64,000 nucleotides of DNA from Escherichia phage RB69, in sequence record NC_004928.1. One strand, given 5' to 3'. Both the position numbers and the translations under genes were made by a program. Below, piece after piece: positions 1,241 to 53,232 of the stretch. Every line of letters starts with the position of its first letter. Within the stretch, counting starts at the first letter, position 1. Below the pieces are notes generated by a model. It worked only from the letters and a program-made list of their open reading frames with translations, was not told the origin of the DNA and made no database searches.

Positions 1241-2005
1241 ATGGCGACTTATGATAAAAATCTTTTCGCCAAACTAGAAAATCGTGGCGGGTATTCTCAG
1301 ACAAATGAGACCGAAATCCTCAATCCATTTGTCAATTTTAATAACTATGAGAATAGTCAGACATTAGCTGATGTTCTAGTGGCAGAAAGCATACAAATGC
1401 GTGGTATTGAATGTTTTTATGTTCCACGTGAATATGTTGCTGTGGATCTTATCTTTGGTGAGGACCTTAAAAATAAATTTACTAAAGCATGGAAATTTGC
1501 TGCGTATCTGAACTCTTTTGAAGGTTATGAAGGAGCGAAATCGTTCTTCAGCAACTTCGGAATGCAAGTTCAAGATGAAGTTACATTATCTATTAACCCA
1601 GGTCTTTTCAAACACCAGGTCAACAATCAAGAGCCTAAGGAAGGTGATTTAATATACTTCCCAATGGACAACAGTTTGTTTGAGATTAACTGGGTTGAAC
1701 CATACGACCCATTCTATCAAGTAGGTAAAAATGCGATTCGTAAAATTACTGCAGGCAAGTTTATTTACTCTGGCGAAGAAATCAATCCGGTGCTTCAGAA
1801 AAATGAAGGTATCAATATACCTGAATTTAGTGACTTGGAACTTAACCCTGTTAGAAATCTTGACGGTATCCATGACATTAATATCGATGAATATTCTGAA
1901 GTTGAGCAAATCAATTCAGAGGCAAGTGAATACGTTGAACCATATGTAGTAGTTAACAACCGCGGTAGACAAAATTCACCATTTGACGATGGGTTTATGA
2001 ATTAA
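1241..2005 (+). CDS. 14: Neck protein gp14
   Basis: 254 aa ORF, size and position as T4 gp14. Confidence 0.88.
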
Positions 2006-2057
2006 TAAATAAATAAGATAAAGCAAACACCGGTCGAAAGGCCGGTTAGGAGAAATG

Positions 2058-2879
2058 ATGTTTGGTTATTTTTACAACTCGTCGTTCAGGCGATATATCA
2101 CAATGATGGGCGATTTGTTTTCAAATATCCAAGTTAACCGTCAATTGTCTACAGGCAATAAATTAATTAGAGTTCCTATTACGTATGCATCTAAAGAGCA
2201 CTTTATGATGAAACTTAATAAATGGACCTCTATAAACTCGCAAGAAGATGTGGCTAAAGTCGAAACTATTCTACCACGTATAAATCTCCAAATGGTAGAT
2301 TTCGTTTATAACCCAACGTTTAAAACGAATATATTGAATAACTCTCTTTTGAGTAAATCGACTAAGGATATTGTAGACCAATACAACCCATCACCAATTA
2401 AAATGATTTTTGAACTGAGCATCTTTACTCGTTATGAAGATGATATGTTCCAAATCGTTGAGCAAATTATTCCATATTTTCAGCCGCATTTTAATACGAC
2501 TATGATTGAGCAATATGGACAGGATATTCCATTTGAAAGGGATATTAAAGTCGTATGGATGGCAGCAGCAATGGATGAACAAATAGACGGTGATAATTTA
2601 TCTCGTCGACGTTTAGAGTGGTCATTAACATTTGAAGTAAATGGATGGATGTATCCTCCGGTAGGCGCAGCTGAAGGCCTTATTAAAACGACTTATCTTG
2701 ATTTTCATGCTAATGAACGAGACCTTCAAACAGCCGCCAGTGTTTTTGAATCAGTTGATACAGAAATTAAACCGAGAGACGTTGAAGCACAAGATTGGAA
2801 TGGTGAAGTTGAACAAACCTATACTCATGATATTCCAATCCCGACTCCACCAACCCCTCCTGGTCCTAGAAAACAATAA
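2058..2879 (+). CDS. 15: Tail sheath stabiliser / tail completion protein gp15
   Basis: ORF 2055..2879; MFGYFYNSSFRRY start matches recalled T4 gp15, so the second ATG is taken. Confidence 0.9.
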   Translation: MFGYFYNSSFRRYITMMGDLFSNIQVNRQLSTGNKLIRVPITYASKEHFMMKLNKWTSINSQEDVAKVETILPRINLQMVDFVYNPTFKTNILNNSLLSKSTKDIVDQYNPSPIKMIFELSIFTRYEDDMFQIVEQIIPYFQPHFNTTMIEQYGQDIPFERDIKVVWMAAAMDEQIDGDNLSRRRLEWSLTFEVNGWMYPPVGAAEGLIKTTYLDFHANERDLQTAASVFESVDTEIKPRDVEAQDWNGEVEQTYTHDIPIPTPPTPPGPRKQ

Positions 2880-5205
<2,326 letters not shown>

Positions 5206-5232
5206 AAATAAAGCAAATTAAGAGGAATTAAA

Positions 5233-7215
5233 ATGGCACTTCTCTCTCCGGGCGTTGAGCTCAAAGAAACTACCGTACAGAGTACGGTAGTTAATAACTC
5301 CACTGGTACTGCTGCCCTGGCTGGAAAATTCCAATGGGGACCTGCATTCCAGATTAAACAAATCACCGATGAAGTTGCGTTGGTTGATATGTTTGGTACT
5401 CCTAACACAGACACCGCAGATTATTTCATGTCTGCTATGAACTTCCTTCAATATGGTAATGACCTTCGTGTTGTACGCGCTGTTGATCGTGATACTGCTA
5501 AGAACTCATCTCCTGTGGCAGGAAACATTAATTTTACTATTTCTTCGGCTGGCACCAACTACAGAGTTGGTGATAAAGTTGTAGTTAAATATTCTACAGA
5601 TATTATCGAACCAGACGGTGAAGTTACTTCAGTTGATTCTGACGGTAAAATTTTGAATATCTTTATTCCTTCAGGTAAAATTATCGCTAAAGCTAAAGAA
5701 ATCGGCGAATATCCTGAATTAGGTTCAAACTGGACTGCCGAAATGTCTGGGTCTTCTTCTGGTCTGTCTGCAGTAATTACTATTGATTCCGTTGTAATGG
5801 ATTCTGGTATTCTGTTGACTGAAGTTGAAACTTCAGAAGAAGCTATTACTTCTCTAACTTTCCAAGAATCTATTAAAAAATATGGTGTCCCGGGTGTAGT
5901 TGCTCTTTATCCAGGTGAACTTGGAGACCAGCTCGAAATTGAAATCGTATCTAAAGCAGACTATGACAAAGGTGCTTCAGCCCAGTTAAAAATTTATCCT
6001 GATGGTGGCACTCGTTATTCTACTGCTAAAGCAATCTTTGGGTACGGTCCGCAGACTGATGACCAATATGCAATTATCGTTCGTCGCAACGACTCGGTAG
6101 TCCAGAGCGTAGTTCTTTCTACTAAACGTGGTGAACGAGATATTTATGGTAGCAATATCTTCATTGATGATTTCTTTGCTAAAGGCGCAAGCAATTATAT
6201 TTTCGCTACGGCACAAGGTTGGCCAAAAGGTTTCTCTGGCGTAATCAAACTGAATGGTGGCTTATCATCTAATGAAACGGTTGAAGCCGGTGATTTAATG
6301 GAAGCTTGGGATTTGTTTGCTGACCGTGAATCGGTTAATGCACAGTTGTTTATTGCTGGTTCTTGTGCTGGTGAATCTTTAGAAGTTGCTTCTACAGTTC
6401 AGAAACATGTTGTAGCAATTGGTGATTCTCGTCAAGATTGCTTGGTTCTTTGCTCGCCTCCACGTGCAGCTGTAGTTGGTATTCCTGTTAATCGTGCAGT
6501 TGATAATCTGGTTGATTGGCGTACAGCGTCAGGAACTTACACTGATAATAACTTTAATATAAGTTCTACTTATGCTGCTATTGATGGTAACTATAAATAT
6601 CAATATGACAAATATAACGATGTGAATCGTTGGGTTCCATTAGCTGCTGATATCGCCGGTCTTTGTGCTCGAACAGACAATATTTCTCAGCCTTGGATGT
6701 CTCCAGCCGGTTATAACCGTGGTCAAATTCTTAACGTTATTAAGCTTGCAATTGAAACTCGTCAAGCACAAAGAGATCGTTTGTATCAGGAAGCTATTAA
6801 CCCTGTTACTGGTACCGGTGGTGATGGATATGTTCTGTATGGTGATAAAACTGCCACTTCTGTTCCTTCGCCATTTGACCGTATTAACGTACGTCGTTTG
6901 TTTAACATGGTTAAAACGAACATTGGTTCGGCATCCAAATATCGCCTATTTGAATTGAACAACGCATTTACCCGTTCTTCTTTCCGTACAGAGACTTCTC
7001 AATATCTACAGGGTATTAAAGCTCTTGGTGGTGTATATAACTTTAAAGTTGTTTGTGATACTACCAATAACACCCCAGCAGTTATCGACCGTAATGAATT
7101 TGTAGCTACTTTCTACTTACAACCTGCCCGCTCGATAAATTATATTACGTTGAACTTTGTAGCAACAGCAACTGGCGCTGATTTCGACGAACTGATTGGT
7201 GCTGTAGGTGGCTAA
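5233..7215 (+). CDS. 18: Tail sheath protein gp18
   Basis: 660 aa; long identical stretches to recalled T4 gp18. Confidence 0.95.
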   Translation: MALLSPGVELKETTVQSTVVNNSTGTAALAGKFQWGPAFQIKQITDEVALVDMFGTPNTDTADYFMSAMNFLQYGNDLRVVRAVDRDTAKNSSPVAGNINFTISSAGTNYRVGDKVVVKYSTDIIEPDGEVTSVDSDGKILNIFIPSGKIIAKAKEIGEYPELGSNWTAEMSGSSSGLSAVITIDSVVMDSGILLTEVETSEEAITSLTFQESIKKYGVPGVVALYPGELGDQLEIEIVSKADYDKGASAQLKIYPDGGTRYSTAKAIFGYGPQTDDQYAIIVRRNDSVVQSVVLSTKRGERDIYGSNIFIDDFFAKGASNYIFATAQGWPKGFSGVIKLNGGLSSNETVEAGDLMEAWDLFADRESVNAQLFIAGSCAGESLEVASTVQKHVVAIGDSRQDCLVLCSPPRAAVVGIPVNRAVDNLVDWRTASGTYTDNNFNISSTYAAIDGNYKYQYDKYNDVNRWVPLAADIAGLCARTDNISQPWMSPAGYNRGQILNVIKLAIETRQAQRDRLYQEAINPVTGTGGDGYVLYGDKTATSVPSPFDRINVRRLFNMVKTNIGSASKYRLFELNNAFTRSSFRTETSQYLQGIKALGGVYNFKVVCDTTNNTPAVIDRNEFVATFYLQPARSINYITLNFVATATGADFDELIGAVGG

Positions 7216-7226
7216 TAAGACGCCTG

Positions 7227-7255
7227 ATGGGCTATTTCGGTAGCCCATATAAATA
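7227..7255 (+). promoter_or_regulatory. Hairpin (ATGGGCTA-tttcgg-TAGCCCAT) followed by late promoter TATAAATA (7248-7255) upstream of gene 19
   Basis: Inverted repeat and exact TATAAATA read directly. Confidence 0.55.
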
Positions 7256-7327
7256 TACTATATCGTTTAAAAATTAATTCTATGGGCATCCGGTTAATCC
7301 TAAGCCCATATTACTACAGAGGCTAAT

Positions 7328-7819
7328 ATGTTTGTAGATGACGTAACTCGTGCCTTCGAATCTGGTGATTTCGCTCGCCCTAACCTGTTCGAAGTAGAAA
7401 TCTCTTATCTTGGGCAAAACTTTAGCTTCCAGTGTCGTGCTACTGCTCTTCCTGCTGCGATCGTTGAAAAGGTTCCTGTTTCTTATATGAACCGTAAAAT
7501 TAACGTGGCCGGTGACCGTACATTCGATGATTGGACTATTACAGTAATGAACGACGATGCTCATAGTATTCGTCAGAAATTCGTTGATTGGCAAGGTATT
7601 GCAGCAGGACAAGGTAATGAAATTACCGGTGGTAAACCTGCTGAATATAAAAAGTCTGCTATCGTTCGTCAATTTGCTCGTGATGCTAAAACTGTCACTA
7701 AAGAAGTTGAAATTGTTGGCTTGTGGCCTACTAACGTTGGCGAAGTATCTCTTGACTGGGACAGCAATAACGAGATTGAAACGTTCGAAGTAACTCTTGC
7801 TCTTGATTGGTGGGAATAA
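7328..7819 (+). CDS. 19: Tail tube protein gp19
   Basis: 163 aa, same length as T4 gp19; synteny after gene 18. Confidence 0.93.
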   Translation: MFVDDVTRAFESGDFARPNLFEVEISYLGQNFSFQCRATALPAAIVEKVPVSYMNRKINVAGDRTFDDWTITVMNDDAHSIRQKFVDWQGIAAGQGNEITGGKPAEYKKSAIVRQFARDAKTVTKEVEIVGLWPTNVGEVSLDWDSNNEIETFEVTLALDWWE

Positions 7820-7826
7820 TCTGGTT

Positions 7827-7875
7827 GGGGAGAAATCCCCAGCTTCCCGTGATGACGGAGAAGTCCATATAAATA
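7827..7875 (+). promoter_or_regulatory. Hairpin GGGGA-gaaa-TCCCC (7827-7840) and late promoter TATAAATA (7868-7875) upstream of gene 20
   Basis: Read directly; TATAAATA lies about 28 nt upstream of the gene 20 ATG. Confidence 0.6.
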
Positions 7876-7903
7876 TAACTATAATTCCCATTTGGAGAAT
7901 ACA

Positions 7904-9475
7904 ATGAAATTTAATATCTTAAGTTTGTTTGCTCCATGGGCAAAAATGGACGAACGTGATTACAAAGACCAAGAAAAAGAAAATTTAGAATCGATCACCT
8001 CACCAAAATTAGACGACGGCGCTAAAGAATACGAAGTATCTGAAAATGAAGCACAGCAAACATATAATGCTATGTTTCAGAGAATGTTCGGTAGCCAAGA
8101 ACCAGGGCTCAAATCAACGCGTGAATTAATCGATACGTATCGAAATTTGATGACGAACTATGAAGTGGATAATGCAGTCTCTGAAATAGTTTCCGATGCT
8201 ATCGTATATGAAGATGATACAGAAGTCGTTTCTATAAATTTAGACAACACAAAATTTAGTCCAAATATCAAATCAATGATGTTGGATGAATTTAACGAAG
8301 TGTTAAATCATTTATCTTTCCAACGTAAAGGTTCAGATCATTTTAGACGTTGGTATGTGGATTCTCGAATTTTCTTCCATAAAATTATTGACCCTAAACG
8401 CCCTAAAGAAGGTATTAAAGAGCTTCGTCGTTTAGACCCACGTCAAGTTCAATATGTCCGTGAAGTTATTACAACCACTGAAGCCGGTGTTAAAATAGTC
8501 AAGGGTTATAAAGAATATTTCATTTATGACACATCACACGAATCTTATGCTTGTGATGGTCGCATATATGAAGCTGGCACAAAAATAAAAATCCCTAAAG
8601 CCGCGATTGTTTATGCCCATTCTGGTTTAGTTGATTGTTGTGGTAAAAATATCATTGGTTATTTGCATCGGGCTATTAAGCCGGCGAACCAATTAAAACT
8701 TCTTGAAGATGCCGTCGTAATTTATCGTATTACTCGTGCTCCTGATCGTCGTGTATGGTATGTTGATACAGGTAATATGCCTTCAAGAAAAGCAGCAGAA
8801 CATATGCAACATGTTATGAATACGATGAAAAACCGTATTGCATATGATGCTACCACAGGCAAGATTAAAAACCAACAGCATATTATGTCGATGACCGAAG
8901 ATTATTGGTTACAACGACGTGATGGTAAAGCAGTAACAGAAGTTGATACATTACCAGGTGCAGATAATACTGGAAATATGGAAGATGTACGTTGGTTCCG
9001 TAATGCGCTTTATATGGCTTTACGTATTCCTATTACCCGTATTCCAAGTGACCAAGGTGGTATACAGTTTGATGCTGGTACTTCTATTACACGAGATGAA
9101 TTGTCATTTGGTAAATTTATTCGTGAGCTGCAACATAAATTTGAAGAGATATTCCTAGACCCGCTTAAAACTAATTTAATTCTTAAAGGAATTATTACAG
9201 AAGATGAGTGGAACGATGAAATAAATAATATTAAGATAAAATTTCATCGGGATAGTTATTTCTCGGAATTAAAGGATGCTGAGATTCTGGAGCGTCGAAT
9301 TAATATGCTTCAGATGGCCGAACCATTTATTGGTAAATATATTTCTCACAGAACAGCTATGAAAGATATTCTTCAGATGTCTGACGAGGAAATTGAACAA
9401 GAGGCTAAGCAAATTGAAGAAGAGTCGAAAGAGGCTCGTTTCCAAGACCCCGACCAAGAACAAGAGGATTTTTAA
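7904..9475 (+). CDS. 20: Portal vertex protein gp20
   Basis: ORF 7892..9475; T4 gp20 begins MKFN, and the first ATG sits inside the GGAGAA Shine-Dalgarno, so start set to 7904; C-terminus identical to recalled T4. Confidence 0.93.
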
Positions 9476-9711
9476 TGGACGATTTAATTCAAGCTATTAA
9501 ATCAAACGACCTCGTTGCTACTCGAAAGTTTTTTGAAAGTGCAATGGCAGAAAAAACGGTTCGTTTGATTGAAGCACGCAAAGCAGAAATCGCTTCTCAA
9601 TTTTTGATTGAAGGCGAAGAACCTGAAGAAGAAAAGAAAGCTAAAGCTTCGGAAGACGACGCTGATGAAGGCGATGACGACGAAGACGAAGATGATGAGG
9701 ACGATGAATAA
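9475..9711 (+). CDS. 67: Prohead core protein gp67 (acidic C-terminus)
   Basis: 78 aa with a DE-rich tail; position between 20 and 68. Confidence 0.85.
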
Positions 9712-10136
9712 TGTATCTTATCCCTGAATCTTATGAATTGGTACTCGAAAATGTCGAAGCACTTATTCCTGAAGCACAGGGCCGAATCGATGCATTGTCT
9801 TCTGCTCTCGATATTGACGATATAAATACTATTATCGAGAACATGCTTGAAACTGAAACGGATTTAGCTGTTGCAATGGCTTCCATTATTAATGAAGAAC
9901 AGTTAAATGAGTTTATCGTTAAACATGTTTCTTCTCGTGGTGAAGTCACCCGCACTAAAGACCGTAAAACTCGTGAACGTAACGCGTTCCAAACAACCGG
10001 TCTTTCTAAAGCAAAACGTAGACAAATCGCTCGTAAGGTCGTTAAAGCTAAAAAAGCTAACCCTTCAGGCCAAGTTAAAGGCTTGCGTAAGCGTAAAAAG
10101 GCTCTTAAACGTCGTAAAGCATTAGGATTAAGCTAA
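9711..10136 (+). CDS. 68: Prohead core protein gp68
   Basis: 141 aa, same length and position as T4 gp68. Confidence 0.85.
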
Positions 10137-10777
10137 TGAATAAACCCGAGTTACTTATTGAAACTTGGGGTCAACCCGGTGAGATTATTGATGGCGTTCC
10201 AATGTTGGAATCTCATGATGGAAAAGATTCTGGCTTAAAACCAGGGCTTTATATAGAAGGTATTTTTCTTCAGGCAGAGGTTGTTAACCGAAATAAACGT
10301 TTATATCCTAAACGCGTTTTGGAAAAAGCAGTAAGTGACTATATTAAAGAACAAGTCGCAACCAAACAAGCCCTTGGAGAATTAAACCATCCACCTCGCG
10401 CAAATGTTGACCCTATGCAAGCCGCTATCATTATTGAAGATATGTGGTGGAAAGGAAACGATGTATATGGACGCGCTAGAATTATTGAAGGCGACCATGG
10501 TCCCGGCGATAAATTAGCTGCTAATATACGAGCTGGTTGGATTCCAGGTGTTTCCTCTCGTGGTCTTGGTTCTTTAACCGACACCAATAAAGGGTACCGT
10601 ATCGTGAACGAAGGATTTAAATTAACCGTCGGCGTAGATGCCGTATGGGGACCTTCTGCTCCAGATGCTTGGGTTACTCCTAAACAAATATCAGAATCAG
10701 AAAATTCGGTGGAAATCACCAAAAACAGTGCTGACGAAGCATTTAAAGCTCTCGCAGAGAGTTTAAAAGCATTATAA
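10136..10777 (+). CDS. 21: Prohead core protease gp21
   Basis: 213 aa; near-identical to recalled T4 gp21 (LLIETWGQPGEIIDGVPMLESHDGKD...). Confidence 0.95.
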   Translation: MNKPELLIETWGQPGEIIDGVPMLESHDGKDSGLKPGLYIEGIFLQAEVVNRNKRLYPKRVLEKAVSDYIKEQVATKQALGELNHPPRANVDPMQAAIIIEDMWWKGNDVYGRARIIEGDHGPGDKLAANIRAGWIPGVSSRGLGSLTDTNKGYRIVNEGFKLTVGVDAVWGPSAPDAWVTPKQISESENSVEITKNSADEAFKALAESLKAL

Positions 10778-10780
10778 ATA
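10773..10780 (+). promoter_or_regulatory. Late promoter TATAAATA upstream of gene 22
   Basis: Exact TATAAATA overlapping the gene 21 stop, about 30 nt upstream of the gene 22 ATG. Confidence 0.6.
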
Positions 10781-10810
10781 ATAATGTAATCTAAACCACA
10801 GGACACTAAA

Positions 10811-11623
10811 ATGATCAAAAGAACAATTTTGAAAGAAGCTCAGAATATCGAGACTTCAGTTGCTCTTAATAGTGTTTTCGAATCAGTAGAACTGTCTCCG
10901 GACGTTAAAGCTAATTTCAGCACTGTATTCGAAGCCACCGTTAAGCAGGAAGCAGTCAAACTGGCTGAATCTCATATCAAAGCCATCGCCGAAAAAGCCG
11001 AAGAAGAAGTTGAAAAGGCTAAAGAAGATGCTGAAGAGAAAGCTGATAAAAAATTGGCTGAACAAGCTTCTAAATTCCTGGACCATCTTGCAAAAGAATG
11101 GCTCGCAGAAAACCAAATCGCAGTTGATAAAGGCATTAAAGCTGATTTGTTCGAATCCATGCTTGGTGGTCTGAAAGAACTGTTTGTTGAACATAACGTT
11201 GTTGTTCCAGAAGAATCTGTAGATGTTGTAGCAGAAATGGAAGAAGAGCTGGCCGAACATAAAGAAGAAACCGCTCGTTTGTTCGAAGAAGTTACCAAAC
11301 GTGATGCATATATCAATTACGTTCAGCGTGAAACCGCTATTAATGAAAGCGTGAAAGACCTGACTGAATCTCAGAAAGAAAAAGTTATTGGCCTGGTTGA
11401 AGGTATGGATTATTCTGACGCATTTGGTACTAAGTTAACTGCTATTGTAGAAATGGTTAAAGGTTCTACTAAAGAAGAAGCCGCTATTACCGAAAGTATA
11501 AATACAGTTGACAATGACGCTGCCGGTCTTAATTTTGTTGCCGAAGCAGTTGACACTACCACAACTCAGGTAGAACAGAATTCTAATGTAAGTTTATATG
11601 CGAAAGTCGCATCTCGTTTCTAA
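10811..11623 (+). CDS. 22: Prohead core scaffold protein gp22
   Basis: 270 aa, acidic and coiled-coil rich; synteny. Confidence 0.9.
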   Translation: MIKRTILKEAQNIETSVALNSVFESVELSPDVKANFSTVFEATVKQEAVKLAESHIKAIAEKAEEEVEKAKEDAEEKADKKLAEQASKFLDHLAKEWLAENQIAVDKGIKADLFESMLGGLKELFVEHNVVVPEESVDVVAEMEEELAEHKEETARLFEEVTKRDAYINYVQRETAINESVKDLTESQKEKVIGLVEGMDYSDAFGTKLTAIVEMVKGSTKEEAAITESINTVDNDAAGLNFVAEAVDTTTTQVEQNSNVSLYAKVASRF

Positions 11624-11640
11624 TTTAAAGGTTAACACAA

Positions 11641-13209
11641 ATGACTACTATCAAAACTAAAGCTCAGCTCGTAGACAAATGGAAAGAACTGCTGGAAGGT
11701 GAAGGCCTGCCGGAAATCGCTAATAGCAAGCAGGCTATTATCGCTAAAATCTTCGAAAACCAGGAAAAAGATTTCGAAGTATCCCCTGAATATAAAGACG
11801 AGAAAATCGCTCAGGCATTTGGTTCTTTCTTGACCGAAGCTGAAATTGGTGGTGACCACGGTTATAATGCTCAGAACATCGCAGCAGGTCAAACCTCTGG
11901 TGCAGTAACCCAGATTGGGCCGGCAGTTATGGGTATGGTTCGTCGTGCTATTCCTAATCTGATCGCTTTTGATATTTGTGGTGTTCAGCCTATGAACAGC
12001 CCTACCGGTCAGGTATTTGCTCTCCGTGCAGTATATGGTAAAGACCCTATCGCTGCTGGCGCTAAAGAAGCTTTCCATCCGATGTATGCTCCGGATGCAA
12101 TGTTCTCTGGTCAGGGCGCTGCTAAGAAATTCCCAGCGCTGGCTGCTAGCACACAAACTAAAGTAGGTGATATCTATACTCACTTCTTCCAGGAAACTGG
12201 TACTGTATATCTGCAAGCTTCTGCTCAAGTAACAATTAGTTCAAGTGCTGATGATGCAGCTAAATTAGATGCAGAAATTATCAAACAAATGGAAGCTGGC
12301 GCACTGGTAGAAATCGCTGAAGGTATGGCTACTTCTATCGCTGAACTTCAGGAAGGCTTCAATGGTTCTACCGACAACCCGTGGAACGAAATGGGCTTCC
12401 GTATCGACAAACAAGTTATTGAAGCTAAATCTCGTCAGCTGAAAGCAGCTTACTCCATCGAATTGGCACAAGACCTCCGTGCAGTACACGGTATGGATGC
12501 TGATGCTGAACTGAGCGGTATTCTTGCTACTGAAATTATGCTGGAAATCAACCGTGAAGTTGTTGACTGGATTAACTACTCCGCTCAGGTTGGTAAATCT
12601 GGTATGACTAATATCGTTGGTTCTAAAGCTGGTGTATTTGACTTCCAAGACCCGATTGATATTCGTGGTGCTCGTTGGGCCGGTGAAAGCTTTAAAGCTC
12701 TGTTGTTCCAGATTGATAAAGAAGCAGTTGAAATTGCTCGTCAAACCGGTCGTGGTGAAGGCAACTTTATTATCGCTTCCCGTAACGTAGTTAACGTACT
12801 GGCATCAGTCGATACTGGTATTTCTTACGCTGCACAGGGTCTGGCTTCTGGTTTTAATACCGACACTACTAAGTCTGTATTTGCCGGTGTACTTGGTGGT
12901 AAATACCGCGTATACATCGACCAGTATGCTAAACAGGATTACTTCACTGTTGGTTATAAAGGCGCTAACGAAATGGATGCAGGTATTTACTACGCTCCTT
13001 ACGTTGCACTTACCCCACTGCGTGGTTCCGATCCTAAGAACTTCCAGCCGGTAATGGGCTTTAAAACTCGTTATGGTATCGGTGTTAACCCGTTTGCTGA
13101 AAGTTCCCTGCAGGCTCCAGGTGCTCGCATCCAGTCCGGTATGCCGTCTATCCTGAACAGCCTTGGTAAGAACGCTTACTTCCGCCGTGTATATGTAAAA
13201 GGCATCTAA
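11641..13209 (+). CDS. 23: Major capsid protein gp23
   Basis: 522 aa; synteny and size as T4 gp23. Confidence 0.97.
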   Translation: MTTIKTKAQLVDKWKELLEGEGLPEIANSKQAIIAKIFENQEKDFEVSPEYKDEKIAQAFGSFLTEAEIGGDHGYNAQNIAAGQTSGAVTQIGPAVMGMVRRAIPNLIAFDICGVQPMNSPTGQVFALRAVYGKDPIAAGAKEAFHPMYAPDAMFSGQGAAKKFPALAASTQTKVGDIYTHFFQETGTVYLQASAQVTISSSADDAAKLDAEIIKQMEAGALVEIAEGMATSIAELQEGFNGSTDNPWNEMGFRIDKQVIEAKSRQLKAAYSIELAQDLRAVHGMDADAELSGILATEIMLEINREVVDWINYSAQVGKSGMTNIVGSKAGVFDFQDPIDIRGARWAGESFKALLFQIDKEAVEIARQTGRGEGNFIIASRNVVNVLASVDTGISYAAQGLASGFNTDTTKSVFAGVLGGKYRVYIDQYAKQDYFTVGYKGANEMDAGIYYAPYVALTPLRGSDPKNFQPVMGFKTRYGIGVNPFAESSLQAPGARIQSGMPSILNSLGKNAYFRRVYVKGI

Positions 13210-13233
13210 TCTTAATTGATTAAATCTTATTTT

Positions 13234-13258
13234 GGGAGACTTCGGTCTCCCATTTTTG
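13234..13258 (+). terminator. Rho-independent terminator after gene 23 (GGGAGAC-UUCG-GUCUCCC plus U-run)
   Basis: Perfect 7-bp stem, ttcg loop, then atttttgg. Confidence 0.8.
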
Positions 13259-13290
13259 GTTTTATTTCTGCGCAATTTCGATGTAAGTTT

Positions 13291-13531
13291 TCAAAATATT
13301 TTGCCAATTAGGCATACCTTCTGAACATATGCCGGAGAACCGTCTTTATTTTTGAATGATGCAAGTTTATCAGTGGCCCAATAACCTTTAGTTCGAGCTT
13401 CAGAATCAACTTTCATCCATACTTTGTTGAAGGCATTACCATTAACTTTTGCACCATATTTTTGTACTTTCGGTTACAGATCCAGCTTCCAGAACTTTTA
13501 CAGTATCTCGTAAGAAACGTGCTTTAGTCAT
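13291..13531 (-). pseudogene. Small early gene between 23 and 24, apparently disrupted by a +1 frameshift (about 79 aa if repaired)
   Basis: SD GGAG plus ATG at 13531; frame 1 MTKARFLRDTVKVLEAGSVTESTKIWCKS-stop; the adjacent frame continues with T4-like codons (VQKYGAKVNGNAFNKVWMKVDSEARTKGYWATDKLASFKNKDGSPAYVQKVCLIGKIF) to a stop at 13291. Confidence 0.45.
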
Positions 13532-13559
13532 TTTGTTTACTCCTCTGCAGCTGATAAGT

Positions 13560-29308: not shown

Positions 29309-31396
29309 CTATCCTTGGACAAATTTAAACGGAACTGATTCTAAATCCATTAAAGATGCTAACAATTTCAAACCTTTAGGTGCGCTAGTTTTTTCTACAA
29401 ATGAAGAGAACGATACCGGCTCATCTGATTCGATTTCACCTGTCATAGCAACCACCTCACCTGTTTCCATGAGAACATCACCATCATAAATGACAGCTTC
29501 ATCTAACTGGTCTGAGGACATGACTTCAGCTTGAATAAATTTAAGGTTGGATTCTAAACCTGCACCAGTGTCAGATGACGCATCTGTAATTTTATTTATC
29601 TGCAAGAGAATGCCTCTAGGCAAAATAATTTCTTGCTCATTAGGGTGATTACTCAACTGTCCTGGATAAATCACGTTAACTTTATGAGCACCATCAATAG
29701 CCCATCCAACGTTAACACGGATTTGTTCTGGTGCATGCATAGCTGTTCTTACTTGACTAGGAGAAATAGTAACACCTTCGTCATTATTGTCAATGTTAAG
29801 CTCTTTGCGAACGTTCTTCAGGAGCAAGTCCAAGGGCAACGTTCTCTTTAAACCCACCGAAAATAATAGGAGCTTGTGAAGTGGAAACATAGTTTCTGAA
29901 GTAGAATACCTTATTTTTAACCATTGCTTCGTAAATAGGCATTCTGATAGACTGAGCTCTATATAACGTTTGTCCTTCAGGTAACGGTCTCCATTTAAAA
30001 ACGCCGAATCAAGACCATCAATAGCGCGTTTAACTTCATCTTCATCTGCAACATCGTAAAAATCTGGTTTATAACGACCTAACAACATATTATTGATATC
30101 GGTATACGCAGAAGAGGCATATTCACGAATAGCTCGTTTTTCAGCAACAGAGTATTGTTTAGGGTCCCGATTCATTGTTATATTAAAGGTGCCTCTAGCC
30201 GATTCTCGTGCATAAGTATACATCACATTAGACAAGAACGCTGATTTACGTTGTTTCCAAGTTTTTTCAGATACTTCAGCTAAAACGTCGTCGGCCAGTT
30301 GGAAATTATCACGTCTAAAATCTTCAAACCATTCGTCTTTAATAGAGTCTGCAATCTCATTTGCAGCTTCAACAAAAGCAGCTAATGCTTTAACAGATGT
30401 TGTTTTTTCAGTTTTAATTTTCTTAGCAAACTTTTCTAAAGTTGGCTTAATAACACCACCATAAGAAACTTCATCAGCAAATTTAAAGGATTCATCAATA
30501 CGATTATAAATCTTATTTTCGATATCAGCAACTAAAGTGCCTTTTGCTGTGGACGATGCTTGGGCTAGTACTATTTCATATGCTTCAGGAAGTAATTCGG
30601 CTGTAGCCGGGCCACTAACTTCTTTAGCAGAATTTTCGTATTTCTGGAATAACTCACCTTCTTGGCGGTCCGCTTCTAAAGATTGACTTGCTGCAATAGC
30701 ACGACGAGAAATTTTAGTACGAGCAATAACAGGCTTATCTTTACGTTTTTCTTCTACAGCAGCAATAGAACCAGCGATAGCCGTTTCTTTGGTGACCTTT
30801 TCGCCAGTCTTTTTACTCACATAAACTTCGCCAACATCAGAATCTACTTTCGTGTACAACTCTGTGTTAATGTTAGGGATGCCTTTAATATCTTCAATGT
30901 TGGCATTTTTACGAACCATCATCACATAGGTGTGTTTACCTGTGAATTGATACATTGCCGACAATACTTTAAAACGACCACCGGTTTTAGTAGAAACTAA
31001 ACGAGCAAGAAGAGTTTGAAGCTGCTGTCCACGTCCTTTCAATTTCTTGGTAGGGAATCGGAACAGAACTGCATCCATACGAAGAGCTTTAACCTGTTCA
31101 TATACTGTATTGAAAATGGTGTTGATTGCATCAATAGGAGCAGGACCAAGGCCATTTTTCAATTCAGCGAGATTACCCTTTTCAGATAGACTCATAATAA
31201 CAACATGAGCGTATTTGTCGCCAAGTTTAACTTGTTTTACAGCATCACCTTCGGAAAGGTAAGAGAATAAGCGAACTACGATGTTTGTATCGATATCACC
31301 AATTTTCCAGACTTGTGGAACTTTAGCTTTAGGGTTCAAATTGACGACAGGAAGACTGCCTTCAGATTCAAACACTTCATTTAATTGTTCAGACAT
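29309..31396 (-). CDS. alt: Alt ADP-ribosyltransferase; the ORF is open (695 codons) but the catalytic R/STS region appears out of frame
   Basis: Position next to gene 30 as in T4; ExE-like NEQEIILPRG in frame; LYR and YVSTS motifs present only in an alternative frame across about 29800-30008. Confidence 0.8.
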   Translation of the reverse strand: MSEQLNEVFESEGSLPVVNLNPKAKVPQVWKIGDIDTNIVVRLFSYLSEGDAVKQVKLGDKYAHVVIMSLSEKGNLAELKNGLGPAPIDAINTIFNTVYEQVKALRMDAVLFRFPTKKLKGRGQQLQTLLARLVSTKTGGRFKVLSAMYQFTGKHTYVMMVRKNANIEDIKGIPNINTELYTKVDSDVGEVYVSKKTGEKVTKETAIAGSIAAVEEKRKDKPVIARTKISRRAIAASQSLEADRQEGELFQKYENSAKEVSGPATAELLPEAYEIVLAQASSTAKGTLVADIENKIYNRIDESFKFADEVSYGGVIKPTLEKFAKKIKTEKTTSVKALAAFVEAANEIADSIKDEWFEDFRRDNFQLADDVLAEVSEKTWKQRKSAFLSNVMYTYARESARGTFNITMNRDPKQYSVAEKRAIREYASSAYTDINNMLLGRYKPDFYDVADEDEVKRAIDGLDSAFLNGDRYLKDKRYIELSLSECLFTKQWLKIRYSTSETMFPLHKLLLFSVGLKRTLPLDLLLKNVRKELNIDNNDEGVTISPSQVRTAMHAPEQIRVNVGWAIDGAHKVNVIYPGQLSNHPNEQEIILPRGILLQINKITDASSDTGAGLESNLKFIQAEVMSSDQLDEAVIYDGDVLMETGEVVAMTGEIESDEPVSFSSFVEKTSAPKGLKLLASLMDLESVPFKFVQG

Positions 31397-34266: not shown

Positions 34267-34680
34267 TCAAGTTAGTATTGTATCATCTTTTGTTAGACCA
34301 CTAGCCATGCTGTGCTTCAAAATTTTTCCTTTAGAGGCTTGTAAGGCATCACGAAACCCCTTGTTTTGGATCGCGGCTTCAAAATATGCATTTGTGTATA
34401 ATTCTTTCCACGCTTCGGAGTATCTTGAAAATGGAACTCCTAACCAGAAGAGAGTCCCACGGTCCTGAGCTCTTGCATAAGACCTTCCTGCTTGCTGTGC
34501 AGCCAATCCAGACAACCCAAATATACTATGTTGTTGTTCAACATTTTTCACCTTACATCCTTGGAGAAATCCTTCAAGACCTCCGAATTGAATACCATCC
34601 ATAACAAAAGGCCATTGAGCAAAGTTACTTAATGCACATGACGGCCACTTGAAATTACTTCTAATCTCTAACTCAGGCAT
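34267..34680 (-). CDS. NADAR/YbiA-family (DUF1768) protein (30.3-like)
   Basis: SNFAQWP...DGIQF...E.F.Q pattern matches recalled E. coli YbiA (SNFAAWPIKVDGKTWPTSEHYFQ); start taken at MPELEIR. Confidence 0.65.
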   Translation of the reverse strand: MPELEIRSNFKWPSCALSNFAQWPFVMDGIQFGGLEGFLQGCKVKNVEQQHSIFGLSGLAAQQAGRSYARAQDRGTLFWLGVPFSRYSEAWKELYTNAYFEAAIQNKGFRDALQASKGKILKHSMASGLTKDDTILT

Positions 34681-37665: not shown

Positions 37666-37741
37666 ATTATTCACCACAAAAGTTTCGGATTTGTTCCCAA
37701 TTCAGAGAACGAAGATTATTACCGAGAAGTACTGAATTACT

Positions 37742-38251
37742 TCAATACCAGCTTGGTTTTAGAATGTCTGCCCAATTTTCAGGAGATCGGTTGTATAATT
37801 CTGCGTATACAACCTTTTTAATACCTGACTGCGTAATAGCTTTAGTGCAATCAGGACACGGAGAAAGCGTAGTATATAACGTAGCGCCTTCAATAGAATT
37901 ACCTTTACGAGCTGCAAACAAAATTGCATTCAATTCCGCATGGATTTCGTTATTAGCAGACCATGCACTATGAGCGGCCCGATGTTCTTTAGCCAAAACA
38001 AAATTATCTGCCCGTCCAAATGCTGTAGTGCCTTCTTTATGTCCAGCAACGATGGCCGGGCTTGATTTATTCTTCAACCAACCATTTTCGGATGCATGTT
38101 CGCAACAGTTAACGCCACCTGCGGGTGAACCATTATATCCAGTAGAGATAATGCGTCCATCTTTTTCAATGACCGCACCAACTTTCCATGAACAACATTT
38201 TGATTCTTGAGAAATCAAATAAGCAATTTGAAGATATGTGCTAGCTTTCAT
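37742..38251 (-). CDS. cd: dCMP deaminase, apparently truncated at the C-terminus by 3' frameshifts
   Basis: Zinc-binding motifs HAELNAI and PCPDC; N-terminus matches recalled T4 Cd; ORF is 169 aa versus about 193; remaining C-terminus readable in shifted frames to 37667. Confidence 0.85.
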   Translation of the reverse strand: MKASTYLQIAYLISQESKCCSWKVGAVIEKDGRIISTGYNGSPAGGVNCCEHASENGWLKNKSSPAIVAGHKEGTTAFGRADNFVLAKEHRAAHSAWSANNEIHAELNAILFAARKGNSIEGATLYTTLSPCPDCTKAITQSGIKKVVYAELYNRSPENWADILKPSWY

Positions 38252-38502
38252 TATAGTGTTCCGTATACGCGAGTTGCTTCAACTAAACCGTCACTGCCTA
38301 ATTTAAGGCTAGTAATCTGGTCACCATCTTTAGGATTAACGATTATGAGAAAAGAACGTGGAGATTCTTGAATAACTCGTAATGTTGCATCTTGGAAACG
38401 TTCAGACACCTTATTGATGAGTGCTTGAGCAAATTCTTGTACTTTAATCTGAAATTCGTGTACTGTAATTGGGGTTTCACTTAGCCTTTCGATTTCCCTC
38501 AT
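38251..38502 (-). CDS. Hypothetical protein (83 aa; cd.x)
   Basis: ORF. Confidence 0.5.
   Translation of the reverse strand: MREIERLSETPITVHEFQIKVQEFAQALINKVSERFQDATLRVIQESPRSFLIIVNPKDGDQITSLKLGSDGLVEATRVYGTL

Positions 38503-39228: not shown

Positions 39229-39229
<1 letters not shown>
39038..39229 (-). CDS. Hypothetical protein (63 aa; cd.x)
   Basis: ORF. Confidence 0.5.
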
Positions 39230-40315
<1,086 letters not shown>

Positions 40316-43699: not shown

Positions 43700-44872
43700 T
43701 TAGAAATATTTTTTGTATGAATTGATTACATTTTGGTCTACATCATTATCAATTTGTGCGACAAGATAAGAACTGATTTCAACTTCCTGAGGAGCTGCTT
43801 GAACTAAATCAGAGTTCAGATATTCACGAATCCAAGGATACGGATGCTTGGTCGGAGCATCAGTAATTGGACATGGCAAACCGCACTGTTTCATACGAGA
43901 CACAGTCAAGTAATCAACAAAAGCACACATACTCTGTGTATTGATACCTGGACATGTACCGTCTTTAAAGAGGTGTGCAGCCCATTCCTTGTACTTGACT
44001 ATTAACTTCCATAAAAATGTCAACTGCTTCTTGTTCACATTCTTTAGCAATTTGAACCCACTCATCGCCATCAGTACCAGATTGAAGTTGACGGATAATG
44101 TACTGAGTACCCTGAGATGGAGTTGTTCGTCACGAGCAATGAACTTCATAATCTTTGCATTACCTTCCATAATTTCCATATTTTTATGGAAGTTGAAAGT
44201 ACATGCAAATGATACGTAAAAACGAATAGCTTCTAAGGCGTTGATAACATGCAAACAGAGATAAAGAGACTTCATTAAATCGCGCTTGGCGTTAAACATT
44301 ATTTCTTCGTACATCTCAATATCATTCTGCTGGCATGAGCCTATTGAACACTCATAAACTTCCTTAGCATTTTCCCAATTACGAGTCTTGACTAGAACAT
44401 CGTCATAATATTTACCTATTGATTCAGCTCGTTTCATGATTGCTTCGTCTAATACAATCTCATCAAATACTTTGGATGGATCGGTATAAAGATTTCGCAT
44501 AATATGAGTATATGAACGAGAGTGAATAGTTTCACTGAATGTCCATGTTGCAACCCACGTATCTAATGAAGGGTCGGAAATCAGTGCCATAAGTACCGCA
44601 GATGGGGCCCTGCCTTGGATAGAATCCAATAATGATTGATACTTAAGATTGTTTGTACAGATGTCCTGTTGGAACTGAGGAAGCTTATTGAACTGTGCAG
44701 AGTCCAACATCAAGTTTACCTCTTCGGGGCGCCAGAAAAATGACAGGATTTCTATAAGTTCTTCAAAAACTTTATGACGCTGAATATCATACCGTGCAAG
44801 ACCAAGACCAGAACCAAAGAACATCGGTTCGTTCAAAACATCGACTTGTTGTGTATTAAAAACTGTACTCAT
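43700..44872 (-). CDS. nrdB: Ribonucleotide reductase small subunit NrdB; intron-less, ORF open but about 43 codons after the RDE.LHL iron-ligand motif appear out of frame
   Basis: 390 aa ORF; in-frame IARDEQLHL then atypical codons; shifted frame gives GTQYIIRQLQSGTDGDEWVQIAKECEQEAVDIFMEVNSQVQ, resembling recalled E. coli NrdB [39 protein letters not shown]. Confidence 0.85.
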   Translation of the reverse strand: MSTVFNTQQVDVLNEPMFFGSGLGLARYDIQRHKVFEELIEILSFFWRPEEVNLMLDSAQFNKLPQFQQDICTNNLKYQSLLDSIQGRAPSAVLMALISDPSLDTWVATWTFSETIHSRSYTHIMRNLYTDPSKVFDEIVLDEAIMKRAESIGKYYDDVLVKTRNWENAKEVYECSIGSCQQNDIEMYEEIMFNAKRDLMKSLYLCLHVINALEAIRFYVSFACTFNFHKNMEIMEGNAKIMKFIARDEQLHLRVLSTLSVNFNLVLMAMSGFKLLKNVNKKQLTFLWKLIVKYKEWAAHLFKDGTCPGINTQSMCAFVDYLTVSRMKQCGLPCPITDAPTKHPYPWIREYLNSDLVQAAPQEVEISSYLVAQIDNDVDQNVINSYKKYF

Positions 44873-44927: not shown

Positions 44928-47183
44928 TTAAAGCTTACAAGCAGAGCAATCTTCAGCTTTAGGTGTTTCTAATTCATAGTCATCTGTACCTGACCCATCA
45001 CGAGTGTTATGATAGTAGAGATTTTTTCCGCCAAAGTACCAGAAGTAAAGCAGATCGTCAAGCATTACCGACATTGGCACTTTACCTTTCTCAAATACAG
45101 CAGGGTCATAATAAGTATTAGCAGAAGCAGATTGGCACACCCATTTCAACATGATAGCAACTTGGGTCAAATAAGGTTTATTACCTTTCTTAGCAAGTTT
45201 CCACGCGTAGTCGTAAAGACTCATGTTATGTTCGATATTAGGAACAACCTGTCGGAAGTTGCCTTCTTTAGATTCTTTAATACTTACAGGTCCACGAGGT
45301 GGTTCTATACCATTTGTGCTATTTGAGACTTGACTGCTTGATTCACATGGCATGAGAGCACTAAGTGTACTGTTACGAATTCCATGTTCTTTTGAGTTCA
45401 GCTCGAAGTTCTTCCAGTCACAGACGTAGTTCGGGGCTGCGATTTGGTCAATCTTTTTATTGTACCAGTCGATAGGTAATTCGCCTCTAGACCATTTAGT
45501 GTCTGAATAATACTCACAAGGTCCTTTTTCTTTGGCGAGTTTGATTGAAGCTTTGATAAGGCCATATTGCAATCTCTCGAACAATTCATGAGTCAAATAG
45601 TTAGCGTCTTCATATGAAGCAAAGTTAGAAGCTAACCATGCAGCATAGTTCGTCACACCGACACCGAGATTTCGACGCTTTTTAGCTTTTAAAGCTTCTG
45701 GAACCGGATAATCTTGATAGTCTAACAGGTTATCAAGTGCACGTACTTGTACTTCAGCAAGTTCATTAATTTTATCTTGGTCTTGCCAATCAAATTTATC
45801 TAATACAAAAGCAGATAACGTGCATAAACCAATTTCAGCATCAGGACCATTCACATCATTAGTTGGAATAGCGATTTCACAACATAAGTTACTCTGACGA
45901 ATTGGAGCTTTTTCACGAATAAACGGAGTGTAGTTATTCGTGTTATCAACAAACTGTGGATAAATTCGAGCAGTACCAGAACGTTCAGTCATGAACAATT
46001 CAAAGAGTTCTAGTGCTTTGATTCTTTTCTTTCTGATTGTTGGGTCTTTTTCAGCTTTCTCATAAAGCTCACGGAATTTATCTTGATCTTCAAAGAATGA
46101 GTAATATAGTTCGCCTGACATTTCGTGAGGGCTAAATAAAGTAATATAATCATTTTTACCAAGGCGTTCCATCATGAGGTCATTAATCTGAATTCCGTAG
46201 TCCATATGTCGAATACGGTTTTCATCCACGCCTTTGTTATTTTTCAGAACTAATAGGTTCTCTACTTCTAAGTGCCACATTGGATAATACGCTGTAGCAG
46301 CACCACCACGAATACCACCTTGAGAACAAGATTTTACTGCAGTTTGGAAATGTTTCCAGAATGGAATAACACCCGTATGTCGAACTTCACCCATACCGAT
46401 CTTAGAACCTTCTGCACGAAGCATACCAACGTTGATACCGATACCAGCTCGTTTAGAAATATATTCAATAATTGATGCTGAAGTTTTGTTAATAGATTTT
46501 AACGAATCACCGGCTTCAATAACTACACAACTAGAGAACTGGCGAGTTGGAGTACGAGCACCTGCCATAATTGGGGTTGGCAATGAAACTTGATGAGTAG
46601 AAACGGCATCATAAAAACGAATAATATGTTTCAAACGGTCATGAGTTTCGTCTTGGTGTAAGGCCATGCCAATAGCCATGATAGCAAACTGGGGAGTTTC
46701 ATAAATCTTACCAGTTGTTTTATCTTTAACCAGGTATTTTTCTTTAAGCTGCATAGCACCAGCATAAGTCAGATCAAAATCTCGCTCATGTTTAATCCGA
46801 GAATCAAGATAAATGATTTCTTCTGCAGAATATCTAGACAACAACTCAGGATCATATTTGCCTTCATTAACACAATAAGAAATATGGTCGATAAAAGCAG
46901 GCGGTTCAAACTGCCCATATACATCTTTACGAAGTGCAAACATTAGCCCTTTGGCGGCGACATACTGATAATCAGGTTCTTCGACAGAAATCGAGTTAGC
47001 TGCAACTTTAATACAAATCTTCTGGATATCTTTGGTGCTCATCCCGTCGACAAGATGGGTCTTAATTTCTTCGTACAATTCATATGGGTCGATTTGTGTT
47101 CCTTCACATTGCCAAGTTAAGACTTGAATAATTTTCTGTGCATCAAAATTTTGGGATACACCACTGCTCTTAGTTACTTGCAT
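44928..47183 (-). CDS. nrdA: Ribonucleotide reductase large subunit NrdA
   Basis: 751 aa; active-site region SNLCCEIA, C-terminal redox cysteines (CSACKL); alignable with recalled E. coli NrdA. Confidence 0.95.
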   Translation of the reverse strand: MQVTKSSGVSQNFDAQKIIQVLTWQCEGTQIDPYELYEEIKTHLVDGMSTKDIQKICIKVAANSISVEEPDYQYVAAKGLMFALRKDVYGQFEPPAFIDHISYCVNEGKYDPELLSRYSAEEIIYLDSRIKHERDFDLTYAGAMQLKEKYLVKDKTTGKIYETPQFAIMAIGMALHQDETHDRLKHIIRFYDAVSTHQVSLPTPIMAGARTPTRQFSSCVVIEAGDSLKSINKTSASIIEYISKRAGIGINVGMLRAEGSKIGMGEVRHTGVIPFWKHFQTAVKSCSQGGIRGGAATAYYPMWHLEVENLLVLKNNKGVDENRIRHMDYGIQINDLMMERLGKNDYITLFSPHEMSGELYYSFFEDQDKFRELYEKAEKDPTIRKKRIKALELFELFMTERSGTARIYPQFVDNTNNYTPFIREKAPIRQSNLCCEIAIPTNDVNGPDAEIGLCTLSAFVLDKFDWQDQDKINELAEVQVRALDNLLDYQDYPVPEALKAKKRRNLGVGVTNYAAWLASNFASYEDANYLTHELFERLQYGLIKASIKLAKEKGPCEYYSDTKWSRGELPIDWYNKKIDQIAAPNYVCDWKNFELNSKEHGIRNSTLSALMPCESSSQVSNSTNGIEPPRGPVSIKESKEGNFRQVVPNIEHNMSLYDYAWKLAKKGNKPYLTQVAIMLKWVCQSASANTYYDPAVFEKGKVPMSVMLDDLLYFWYFGGKNLYYHNTRDGSGTDDYELETPKAEDCSACKL

Positions 47184-52359: not shown

Positions 52360-53232
52360 TTACAAGTATGAATAAATCTTGCCTTTAGGTTGTGGTTGAT
52401 ATGAGTTATAATACTCTATAATGGTTGAAGCAATATTATCAGGGATATAATCAAAATCAATGAGAACCAAATTTTCTTGGTACCGTTTATATTCTTCTGC
52501 ACTTAATAATACTTCAGCTTGAGAACGATCATTGGCAAGTGCTTCAATGATCGTTGTTTTCATGCTTGGAGTTCGTTCGCCTTCGACTCGAGTAAACCAG
52601 AAATCACCACGAACTCGAACAGACGCAACACCATCTTTACGGTCGCCTTTAAGAATTTTAGTCATGCAATCAATTTCGGCAGAACCATTCTTAATTTTAA
52701 CCCATTTTTTCTGCGGTGGCGACCACTGTTTAACGTTAGGGTATTTGTGTAATTGTGTAAAGTCACCATCTGATGCAACAATACACACCTTATGACCAGC
52801 TAATGACAAATATTTAGTTAATACGCCGATATGGTCATCCGCTTCGTATTTGTCAATATCCATTACAACGTATGGCATATATTTCTTAATCTCATCAACG
52901 ACTTGATGAAGTGCAGTAAAATATCCTTCCCAATCCCACTTTGAAGCTTCACGATCAGTTTTACGATTTTTCTTGTAGTAGTAAGCAAAGTCGCGTCGCC
53001 AATACCCAGAAGTAGCGTTATCCATGCACAATACAAATTTTGTATAACCTTGCTTACGGAACATCACTACGTTTTTACGAATTGAATTCAAGACTACATG
53101 ACGAACCATCGGAACGGTAATTTTATCACCATCTTCAAAGTTGTTTAATGCAGCTGCCAATGCAATGTTACTAAAGTCTGCAAGCGCAATACCTTCTTTG
53201 TAATCTTCATCCAACATCATTTCTAAATCCAT
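52360..53232 (-). CDS. rnh: RNase H (5'-3' exonuclease), C-terminus apparently truncated by a 3' frameshift
   Basis: 290 aa; N-terminus MDLEMMLDEDYKEGI matches recalled T4 RNase H; ends KIYSYL-stop while a shifted frame continues VKSGLSKLTSVINEF-stop. Confidence 0.9.
   Translation of the reverse strand: MDLEMMLDEDYKEGIALADFSNIALAAALNNFEDGDKITVPMVRHVVLNSIRKNVVMFRKQGYTKFVLCMDNATSGYWRRDFAYYYKKNRKTDREASKWDWEGYFTALHQVVDEIKKYMPYVVMDIDKYEADDHIGVLTKYLSLAGHKVCIVASDGDFTQLHKYPNVKQWSPPQKKWVKIKNGSAEIDCMTKILKGDRKDGVASVRVRGDFWFTRVEGERTPSMKTTIIEALANDRSQAEVLLSAEEYKRYQENLVLIDFDYIPDNIASTIIEYYNSYQPQPKGKIYSYL

Follow-up and report, generated by a model that had tools for sequence, protein, structure and literature searches.

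The window analysed here, a stretch of 64,000 nucleotides (nt) from the genome of Escherichia phage RB69 (NC_004928.1), carries on its minus strand the gene alt (29309-31396), whose open reading frame (ORF) comprises 695 amino acids (aa) and is open throughout. The gene order around it is shared with T4 (ligase (gene 30), alt.1, alt, alt.-3 and gene 54; T4 alt taken from the annotated record), and the N-terminal 471 aa and the C-terminal 167 aa of its product are colinear with T4 Alt, which identifies the gene as a Tevenvirinae Alt orthologue. The annotated frame contains the peptide DRYLKDKRYIELSLSECLFTKQWLKIRYSTSETMFPLHKLLLFSVGLKRTLPLDLLLKN, and the identical bases, when translated in a second frame, read PEGQTLYRAQSIRMPIYEAMVKNKVFYFRNYVSTSQAPIIFGGFKENVALGLAPEE. 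The product of the ORF exactly matches NP_861900.1 (= AAP76109.1 = UniRef100_Q7Y4U1), 'Alt RNA polymerase ADP-ribosylase [Escherichia phage RB69]', which derives from the 2003 GenBank/RefSeq record of RB69 (167,560 bp; RefSeq NC_004928; UniProt Q7Y4U1). Because of this exact match, the scrambled stretch described below belongs to the public reference and is not peculiar to the copy in the window; on the same grounds we rejected a planted or synthetic alteration of the window.

Gapped alignment to three relatives, complemented by a script, placed four differences in alt: the loss of a T at 29983-29984, two T-to-A substitutions (29971 and 29875) and the insertion of a C at 29813 (Table 1). In the out-of-frame interval 52 of the 57 residues (aa 472-528) differ from the in-frame protein; the in-frame reading includes the peptides LPEGLTLYR, AQSIR and NYVSTSLAPIIFGGFK, and the annotated frame YLKDKRYIELSLSECLFTK, YIELSLSECLFTK and QWLK. 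The translations of G2469, JS09 and ATK47 show GDRLPEGLTLYRAQSIRMPIYEAMVKNKVFYFRNYVSTSLAPIIFGGFKENVALGLAPEEVRKEL where the window reads GDRYLKDKRYIELS...LLLKNVRKEL, and the relatives thus read what is the 'other' frame in the window. When a relative's sequence is given the two indels alone, the shifted frame contains exactly two stop codons, located at the two substituted bases. Both substitutions occurred in the same context, ACTA[AG], which is present twice in the interval and reads ACAA[AG] at both sites in the record. We rejected the view that they are natural Leu-to-Gln polymorphisms, because the relatives differ at these codons only by synonymous CTA/TTA and the Leu encoded at 29875, directly after the STS motif discussed below, is invariant; as natural variants, their true-frame effects (one of them at this invariant Leu) are implausible. 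A scan of alt for promoters and terminators gave nothing above chance that bears on the frameshift.

The two frames also differ in codon usage. As reference we used 1,195 true-frame segments of 57 codons from long genes of the window (mean log codon frequency -3.82, standard deviation 0.11). The annotated-frame segment scores -4.38, lower than all of them, whereas the hidden frame scores -3.88, a value typical of the genes in the window, in which AGG, CCC, CTC and CTA occur at only 1.1, 0.5, 4.0 and 5.1 per 1000 codons, respectively. A first-pass annotation, made from the letters of the window only, had already pointed to rare codons in the annotated frame and typical ones in the other. It had also recognized the kind and order of the two indels, but placed the deletion near 30005 and the insertion near 29803 (~20 and ~10 nt off). 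Similarly, the stretch of ~64 codons that it described within 29795-30010 is real but too long, and the core of its alternative-frame peptide is correct, whereas the ends ('FGVFKWRP...' and '...ERSQ') reach beyond the true shifted interval.

An open shifted frame of this length is more than chance. Stretches of 57 codons without a stop were found at only 4% of the positions in the same shifted frame of the genes in the window. The ancestral interval has two stops, and of 130,815 possible substitution pairs just 56 (4.3e-4) would open it. Stop codons in the shifted frame are a known barrier to double frameshift pairs, as in the Crick-Brenner experiments with rIIB of T4. Like alt, the (+/-) rIIB pairs consist of distant -1 and +1 events that re-establish the frame and leave the intervening residues scrambled; unlike alt, they are real, selected suppressors in a tolerant region, whereas in alt the scrambled residues make up the catalytic core and the evidence speaks for a flaw of the record, not of the phage.

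Alt of T4 (NP_049811.1, 682 aa) is a capsid-packaged NAD+:arginine ADP-ribosyltransferase that acts on the alpha subunit of RNA polymerase, and it occupies the same genomic position as alt of RB69. The in-frame RB69 protein is colinear with it over the full length (43% identity) and shares the motifs LPxGxTLYR, YFRN[FY]VSTSL, NExE[VI]ILPRG and the C-terminal FKFVQG, whereas aa 472-528 of the deposited protein, being out of frame, do not align; in the in-frame RB69 assemblies described below this difference is absent. An alignment with orthologues had been set beforehand as the test that could refute a frameshift. T4 Alt and four further homologues (45-58% identity) proved to be colinear with the hidden frame over LPxGxTLYR and YFRN[YF]VSTSL, whereas the annotated peptide does not align with them. 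The alignments to the relatives and to T4 Alt thereby confirmed that, as the first-pass annotation had it, a compensated -1/+1 pair removes the catalytic Arg and the STS from the annotated frame and leaves the ExE motif in it, and RefSeq and UniProt do annotate an intact product, as that annotation had expected of ORF callers.

In the annotated product, position 480 (the catalytic Arg of the in-frame protein) is a Glu within YIELS, and positions 505-507 read P-L-H, although S-T-S-L is invariant across the homologue alignments. The ExE motif (NEQEIILPRG, E587/E589) is retained; it is likewise invariant and stands opposite NEYEV/GEYEV of BECa/CDTa. In T4 Alt the glutamate at the equivalent of ExE is essential, the mutant E577A being inactive (PMC11404850). 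Because the Arg and the STS are out of frame, the protein as deposited would be expected to be inactive. The Pfam domain PF03496 (ADP-ribosyltransferase exoenzyme) gave a single continuous match to the in-frame protein (413-610, 97.9 bits), but only two flanking pieces, with the middle absent, in the annotated product (56.5 bits). Membership of the ADP-ribosyltransferase (ART) family is thus complete for the in-frame sequence and only partial for the deposited one.

A plain sequence search of Alt against solved structures gave no match and a profile was required; the domain profile matched BECa, CDTa, iota Ia, C3 and Certhrax, and in these alignments the Arg of LYR pairs with iota Ia residue 295 and with the YR of BECa/CDTa, and NEQEI with NEYEV/GEYEV. 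The in-frame domain was also modelled; its predicted structure, of modest confidence (predicted local distance difference test, pLDDT, 58; core 64-82), retrieved only ART toxins of the C2/C3 type at the top (E down to 5e-8, template modelling score up to 0.50), and in this model the scrambled interval would span the Arg strand, the helix after it and the STS strand. The R-S-E toxins (iota Ia, CDTa, BECa, C3bot, Certhrax and Vis; PF03496) share the domain and the positions of Arg and ExE with the in-frame Alt; unlike them, Alt has a long N-terminal extension for capsid packaging, and identity is only 12-18%. We regard RB69 alt as very probably a normal Tevenvirinae Alt, i.e. a mono-ADP-ribosyltransferase that is packaged in the capsid and belongs to the R-S-E (C2/C3-toxin-like) type. 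The wrong-frame peptide also includes R-Y-S-T-S (IRYSTSE; aa 496-500, 29870-29905; S-T-S at 498-500), a chance look-alike of an ART motif, seven residues off register from the true STS, which could fool a motif scan of NP_861900.1.

The scrambled state is confined to the record. A megablast search with alt retrieved 149 records of Mosigvirus (RB69/JS09-like), 95-99% identical and each aligned over exactly 2,088 nt, and none of them carries any of the four changes; the best identity over the 261 nt around them was 98.5%, which corresponds to exactly these four differences. In all 16 other loci that were fetched we found TTT, CTA, CTA-or-TTA and no inserted C, and a scan of IMG/VR for either state of the first junction yielded a single contig, which is in frame. 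Among ~15 billion proteins the Alt of the record is a singleton in its 90% cluster, whereas the in-frame version belongs to a cluster with 289 members.

Independent assemblies of RB69 were found by exact-sequence look-up of the products of neighbouring genes. Three de novo read assemblies encode exact RB69 products: L004 (SRR16629527; ligase), L015 (SRR16629523; gp23) and L024 (SRR16634598; RNA ligase 1). They are 99.84-99.87% identical with the window (L004 99.86% over 13.5 kb), including one stretch of 9.2 kb without any difference, whereas the nearest deposited Mosigviruses reach ~97-98.5%, and L004 and L024 agree in all overlaps; judged by sequence identity, the three are evidently the same phage as that of the record. 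In L004, alt is in frame and departs from the window, over 2,088 nt, only at the four sites, and the in-frame Alt product is present on eight contigs. Exact look-ups of the Alt, NrdA and NrdB products of the window found none of them in the contig index, because of their private (i.e. record-specific) scrambled segments, and a look-up of UvsW found ordinary relatives only and no RB69 twin.

These data bear on two further explanations. One is programmed recoding, in which two ribosomal frame shifts, or a bypass, would yield functional Alt from the deposited sequence. Translational bypassing is known in gene 60 of T4, which provides a general precedent only, but neither GAC CGT TAC CTG nor GAA GAA CGT TCG offers a slippery heptamer, two efficient shifts would be required, and the arrangement is absent from all relatives and from the assemblies of the same phage; we rejected this explanation, whose probability is practically nil. 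The other is a real allele in the stock sequenced in 2003, i.e. a full-length, packaged Alt with a scrambled core lacking Arg and STS and thus enzymatically dead, as the first-pass annotation had considered. An open ORF with intact N- and C-terminal parts, including ExE, is consistent with it, and alt is dispensable in T4, where a structural role beside catalysis has been proposed (PMC11404850). However, alt is in frame in the independent assemblies of this phage, and the gene shows neither further decay nor relaxed constraint, since no other difference from the in-frame assembly exists in its 2,088 nt. A dead Alt in this phage is therefore unsupported, and such an allele very unlikely.

The comparison of the record with the independent assemblies was extended over 39.5 kb (1641-13554 and 25640-53203; the remaining ~24 kb, 13.5-25.6 and 53.2-64 kb, lay outside it). 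It revealed ~63 differing columns, including ~24 single-base indels, all of them in ~17 tight clusters, and, with the exception of one cluster in gene 30.3 (34270-34273), the outgroups (93-98% identity) share the state of the read assemblies throughout, so that the record stands alone (Table 1). The closest parallel to alt is the second cluster in nrdB, which repeats its signature: KGTQYIIRQLQSG...MEVNSQE became RVLSTLSVNFNLV...LWKLIVKY, whereas the independent assemblies, like three outgroups, keep the true frame. The nrdB indels by themselves would likewise introduce two shifted-frame stops, and the record has a substitution in each of them (44004, TAA to TTA; 43991, TAG to TAC). Taken together, alt and nrdB lost all four of their shifted-frame stops, with no other substitution in 171 + 121 nt. 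Because every such stop was changed in both long cases, an open ORF in an old record is no proof of a correct frame.

Table 1. Features of alt and clustered differences of the deposited RB69 record from its relatives and from independent assemblies (positions in the window).
Feature	Position	Strand	Description
alt ORF as deposited	29309..31396	minus	695 aa; identified by product match and synteny with T4
Out-of-frame interval	29813..29983	minus	171 nt = 57 codons, aa 472-528; annotated frame YLKDKRYIELSLSECLFTKQWLKIRYSTSETMFPLHKLLLFSVGLKRTLPLDLLLKN
True-frame reading of the interval	29813..29983	minus	LPEG(Q)TLYRAQSIRMPIYEAMVKNKVFYFRNYVSTS(Q)APIIFGGFKENVALGLAPEE
Upstream shift site	29983..29984	minus	TT in record, TTT in every relative; codon 472 TTA Leu becomes TAC Tyr
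Private T to A	29971	minus	true frame CTA Leu to CAA Gln; shifted frame TAA stop to AAA Lys
Private T to A	29875	minus	true frame CTA Leu to CAA Gln; shifted frame TAG stop to AAG Lys
Inserted C	29813	minus	between GAAGAA and GTT, giving GAAGAACGTT; true frame regained at codon 529
Catalytic Arg codon AGA	29958..29960	minus	R480 of in-frame Alt (T4 R478); readable in non-annotated frame only
STS motif TCC ACT TCA	29877..29885	minus	S505-T-S507 of in-frame Alt; non-annotated frame only
ExE motif GAG CAA GAA	29630..29638	minus	E587-Q-E589; annotated frame, intact
nrdB second cluster	43991-44114 (ORF 43700-44872)	minus	-A 44114, +T 43993; 40 codons scrambled
nrdB first cluster	44746-44749	minus	net -3 nt; EKSLSF becomes EILSF; 390 aa vs 391; outgroups agree with read assembly
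nrdB substitution	44658	minus	private T to G, Phe to Cys; outgroups agree with read assembly
nrdA pair	45393-45414 (ORF 44928-47183)	minus	-G 45414/+A 45393, 21 nt apart; 7 codons, EELRAEL becomes KNFELNS; private
Gene 22 start	10820-10826 (ORF 10811-11623)	plus	+A/-C; codons 4-6, MIKEQLLKE becomes MIKRTILKE
cd (dCMP deaminase)	37723-37792 (ORF 37742-38251)	minus	+C 37756, +T and +G 37723-37727, one substitution; all insertions private
Small ORF, DUF7320 homologue	38410-38498 (ORF 38251-38502)	minus	private +G puts upstream ATG in frame
89-aa ORF between genes 23 and 24	13321-13551	minus	garbled; +1/-1 pair ~150 nt apart
rnh 3' end	52366 (ORF 52360-53232)	minus	private -T; RNase H 290 aa vs 305 in read assembly and relatives
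Gene 30.3	34270-34273 and 34527-34530	minus	four consecutive private bases, AGAC reads CATA; RR becomes HS; ten relatives against record
pseT region	39709-39949 (ORF 39229-40128)	minus	six private substitutions, no indels; three outgroups and L024 against record
Isolated non-ORF difference	50050		private +A directly before GGGAGACTTCGGTCTCCC hairpin, downstream of gene 32
Isolated non-ORF differences	36605, 36079		private -T directly after stop codon; one intergenic substitution

These clusters also bear on the real allele. Its frame could have been kept open by selection for a non-enzymatic role, e.g. as a capsid-internal or injected protein, and the loss of exactly two stops would be expected under such selection as well; if true, a virion enzyme would here carry a compensated frameshift of the Crick-Brenner kind that arose in nature. 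However, four mutations would have been needed, with truncated intermediates no better than one missense change, the signature is repeated in nrdB, where 40 scrambled codons of the core cannot be adaptive, and ~24 private indels that cluster within 39.5 kb and also hit gene 22, nrdA, cd and rnh do not represent a natural mutation spectrum. This selective scenario, too, is hardly credible.

An artefact of cloning might have arisen if the intact catalytic domain of Alt were toxic in E. coli, so that only mutated plasmid inserts entered the consensus. RB69 was sequenced from plasmid shotgun libraries, gaps being closed by the polymerase chain reaction, and some regions were under-represented in the libraries and presumed to be deleterious to the host (PMC1524935); in alt, the lesion is located in the catalytic core. 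But a single inactivating hit would have been enough, a compensating insertion and the removal of two stops would not have been selected in a clone, and similar lesions occur in nrdA, nrdB, gene 22, cd and intergenic DNA, which makes toxicity a highly improbable cause.

Random, uncurated errors would be four independent miscalls in one read of low quality, which survived since the ORF remained unbroken, whereas ORF-breaking ones were fixed. The clusters span ~5-230 nt, like read ends, the short pairs (gene 22, 7 nt; gene 30.3, 4 nt; nrdA, 21 nt) resemble peak-spacing artefacts of base callers, and both substitutions in alt fall in one sequence context, at two of its two sites. Nevertheless, the intervals of alt and nrdB hold only substitutions that remove stops (4/4, with a chance of 4.3e-4 for alt alone), and passive survivorship predicts many accompanying neutral miscalls. 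Unaided random error is thus rather unlikely, if somewhat easier to accept than a mutated clone.

We conclude that the scrambled stretch of 57 codons is very probably a defect that lies in the 2003 Sanger record rather than in the phage, and that the record was probably edited with the reading frames in view; RB69 itself, as the in-frame assemblies suggest, almost certainly has a normal, active Alt, whose gene would read in frame ...GDRLPEGLTLYRAQ...YFRNYVSTSLAP...APEEVRKEL.... The state in alt is private against the ancestral one in all relatives, and independent data contradict the record in many other clusters as well. The paired indel errors proposed in the first-pass annotation are thus the favoured explanation, but an incomplete one, since there are four changes and the two stop-removing substitutions had been overlooked. 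Where Sanger coverage was poor, the T run may have lost a base; the consensus might then have been fitted to an open frame at the wrong places, by adding a base 171 nt downstream and altering the two intervening stops from ACTA[A/G] to ACAA[A/G]. A motive for such editing could have been that well-known genes should translate without internal stops, and with the added base and the altered stops the coding sequence passes as intact. Base-calling indels followed by frame-aware editing of the consensus at wrong positions are the best that we can infer, although unproven. In nrdB the treatment is like that of alt, and nrdA and gene 22 show milder, compensated indel pairs; the small novel ORF of 89 aa, which is broken by stops in the record, unlike alt and nrdB, and intact in L015 and in the relative L014, fits frame-aware editing in having been left unrepaired.

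Several points weigh against this conclusion. It is based on assemblies of read sets that may all come from one laboratory, and a look-up of the run accessions led to no labelled RB69 stock and no paper. The exact removal of four shifted-frame stops is unlike random error and needs an undocumented, frame-aware editing, which the RB69 genome paper (PMC1524935) nowhere states. Moreover, not all clusters keep the ORF: cd stops at 169 aa in the record (193 aa in assemblies and relatives), rnh is truncated and the 89-aa ORF broken, so that any editing must have been inconsistent.

In this context, an error of the T4 reference in uvsW/uvsW.1 was corrected by resequencing, as recounted in the RB69 genome paper (PMC1524935). 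Like the error in RB69 alt, it was exposed by comparing relatives; unlike it, the one in alt is compensated, its stops are gone, no break in the ORF serves as a flag, and it persists in RefSeq and UniProt. Literature searches on resequencing of RB69, on errors in its reference and on its alt yielded no report of the problem. The biological novelty is small, and the finding matters mainly for database curation: RB69 is a model phage, and its sole reference carries 57 residues of nonsense over the catalytic Arg and the STS of Alt, 40 in NrdB and shorter stretches in NrdA and gp22, in addition to truncated cd and RNase H. Such errors escape ORF callers, the proteins become singletons in clustering, and motif surveys, structure predictions, inferences of 'dead enzymes' and phylogenies would be misled; the record, together with its RefSeq and UniProt proteins, is in need of resequencing.

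Among the remaining clusters, the exact NrdA product of 751 aa is not on record elsewhere because of its private -G/+A pair, and at the start of gene 22 L015 and L014 (a relative of 98.3% identity) agree against the record. In the small ORF with a DUF7320 homologue, the true start codon ATG reads AGG in the record, giving 83 instead of 78 aa, and further private substitutions were found at 38439 and 38410. Near the stop codon of gene 30.3, the record and the read assemblies each have one extra T compared with other Mosigviruses, 4 nt apart (ACTAACTTGA vs ACTTAACTGA); since both have it, the extra base and the short 30.3 of 137 aa (vs 152 aa) seem to be real for RB69, though the position of the base is uncertain.

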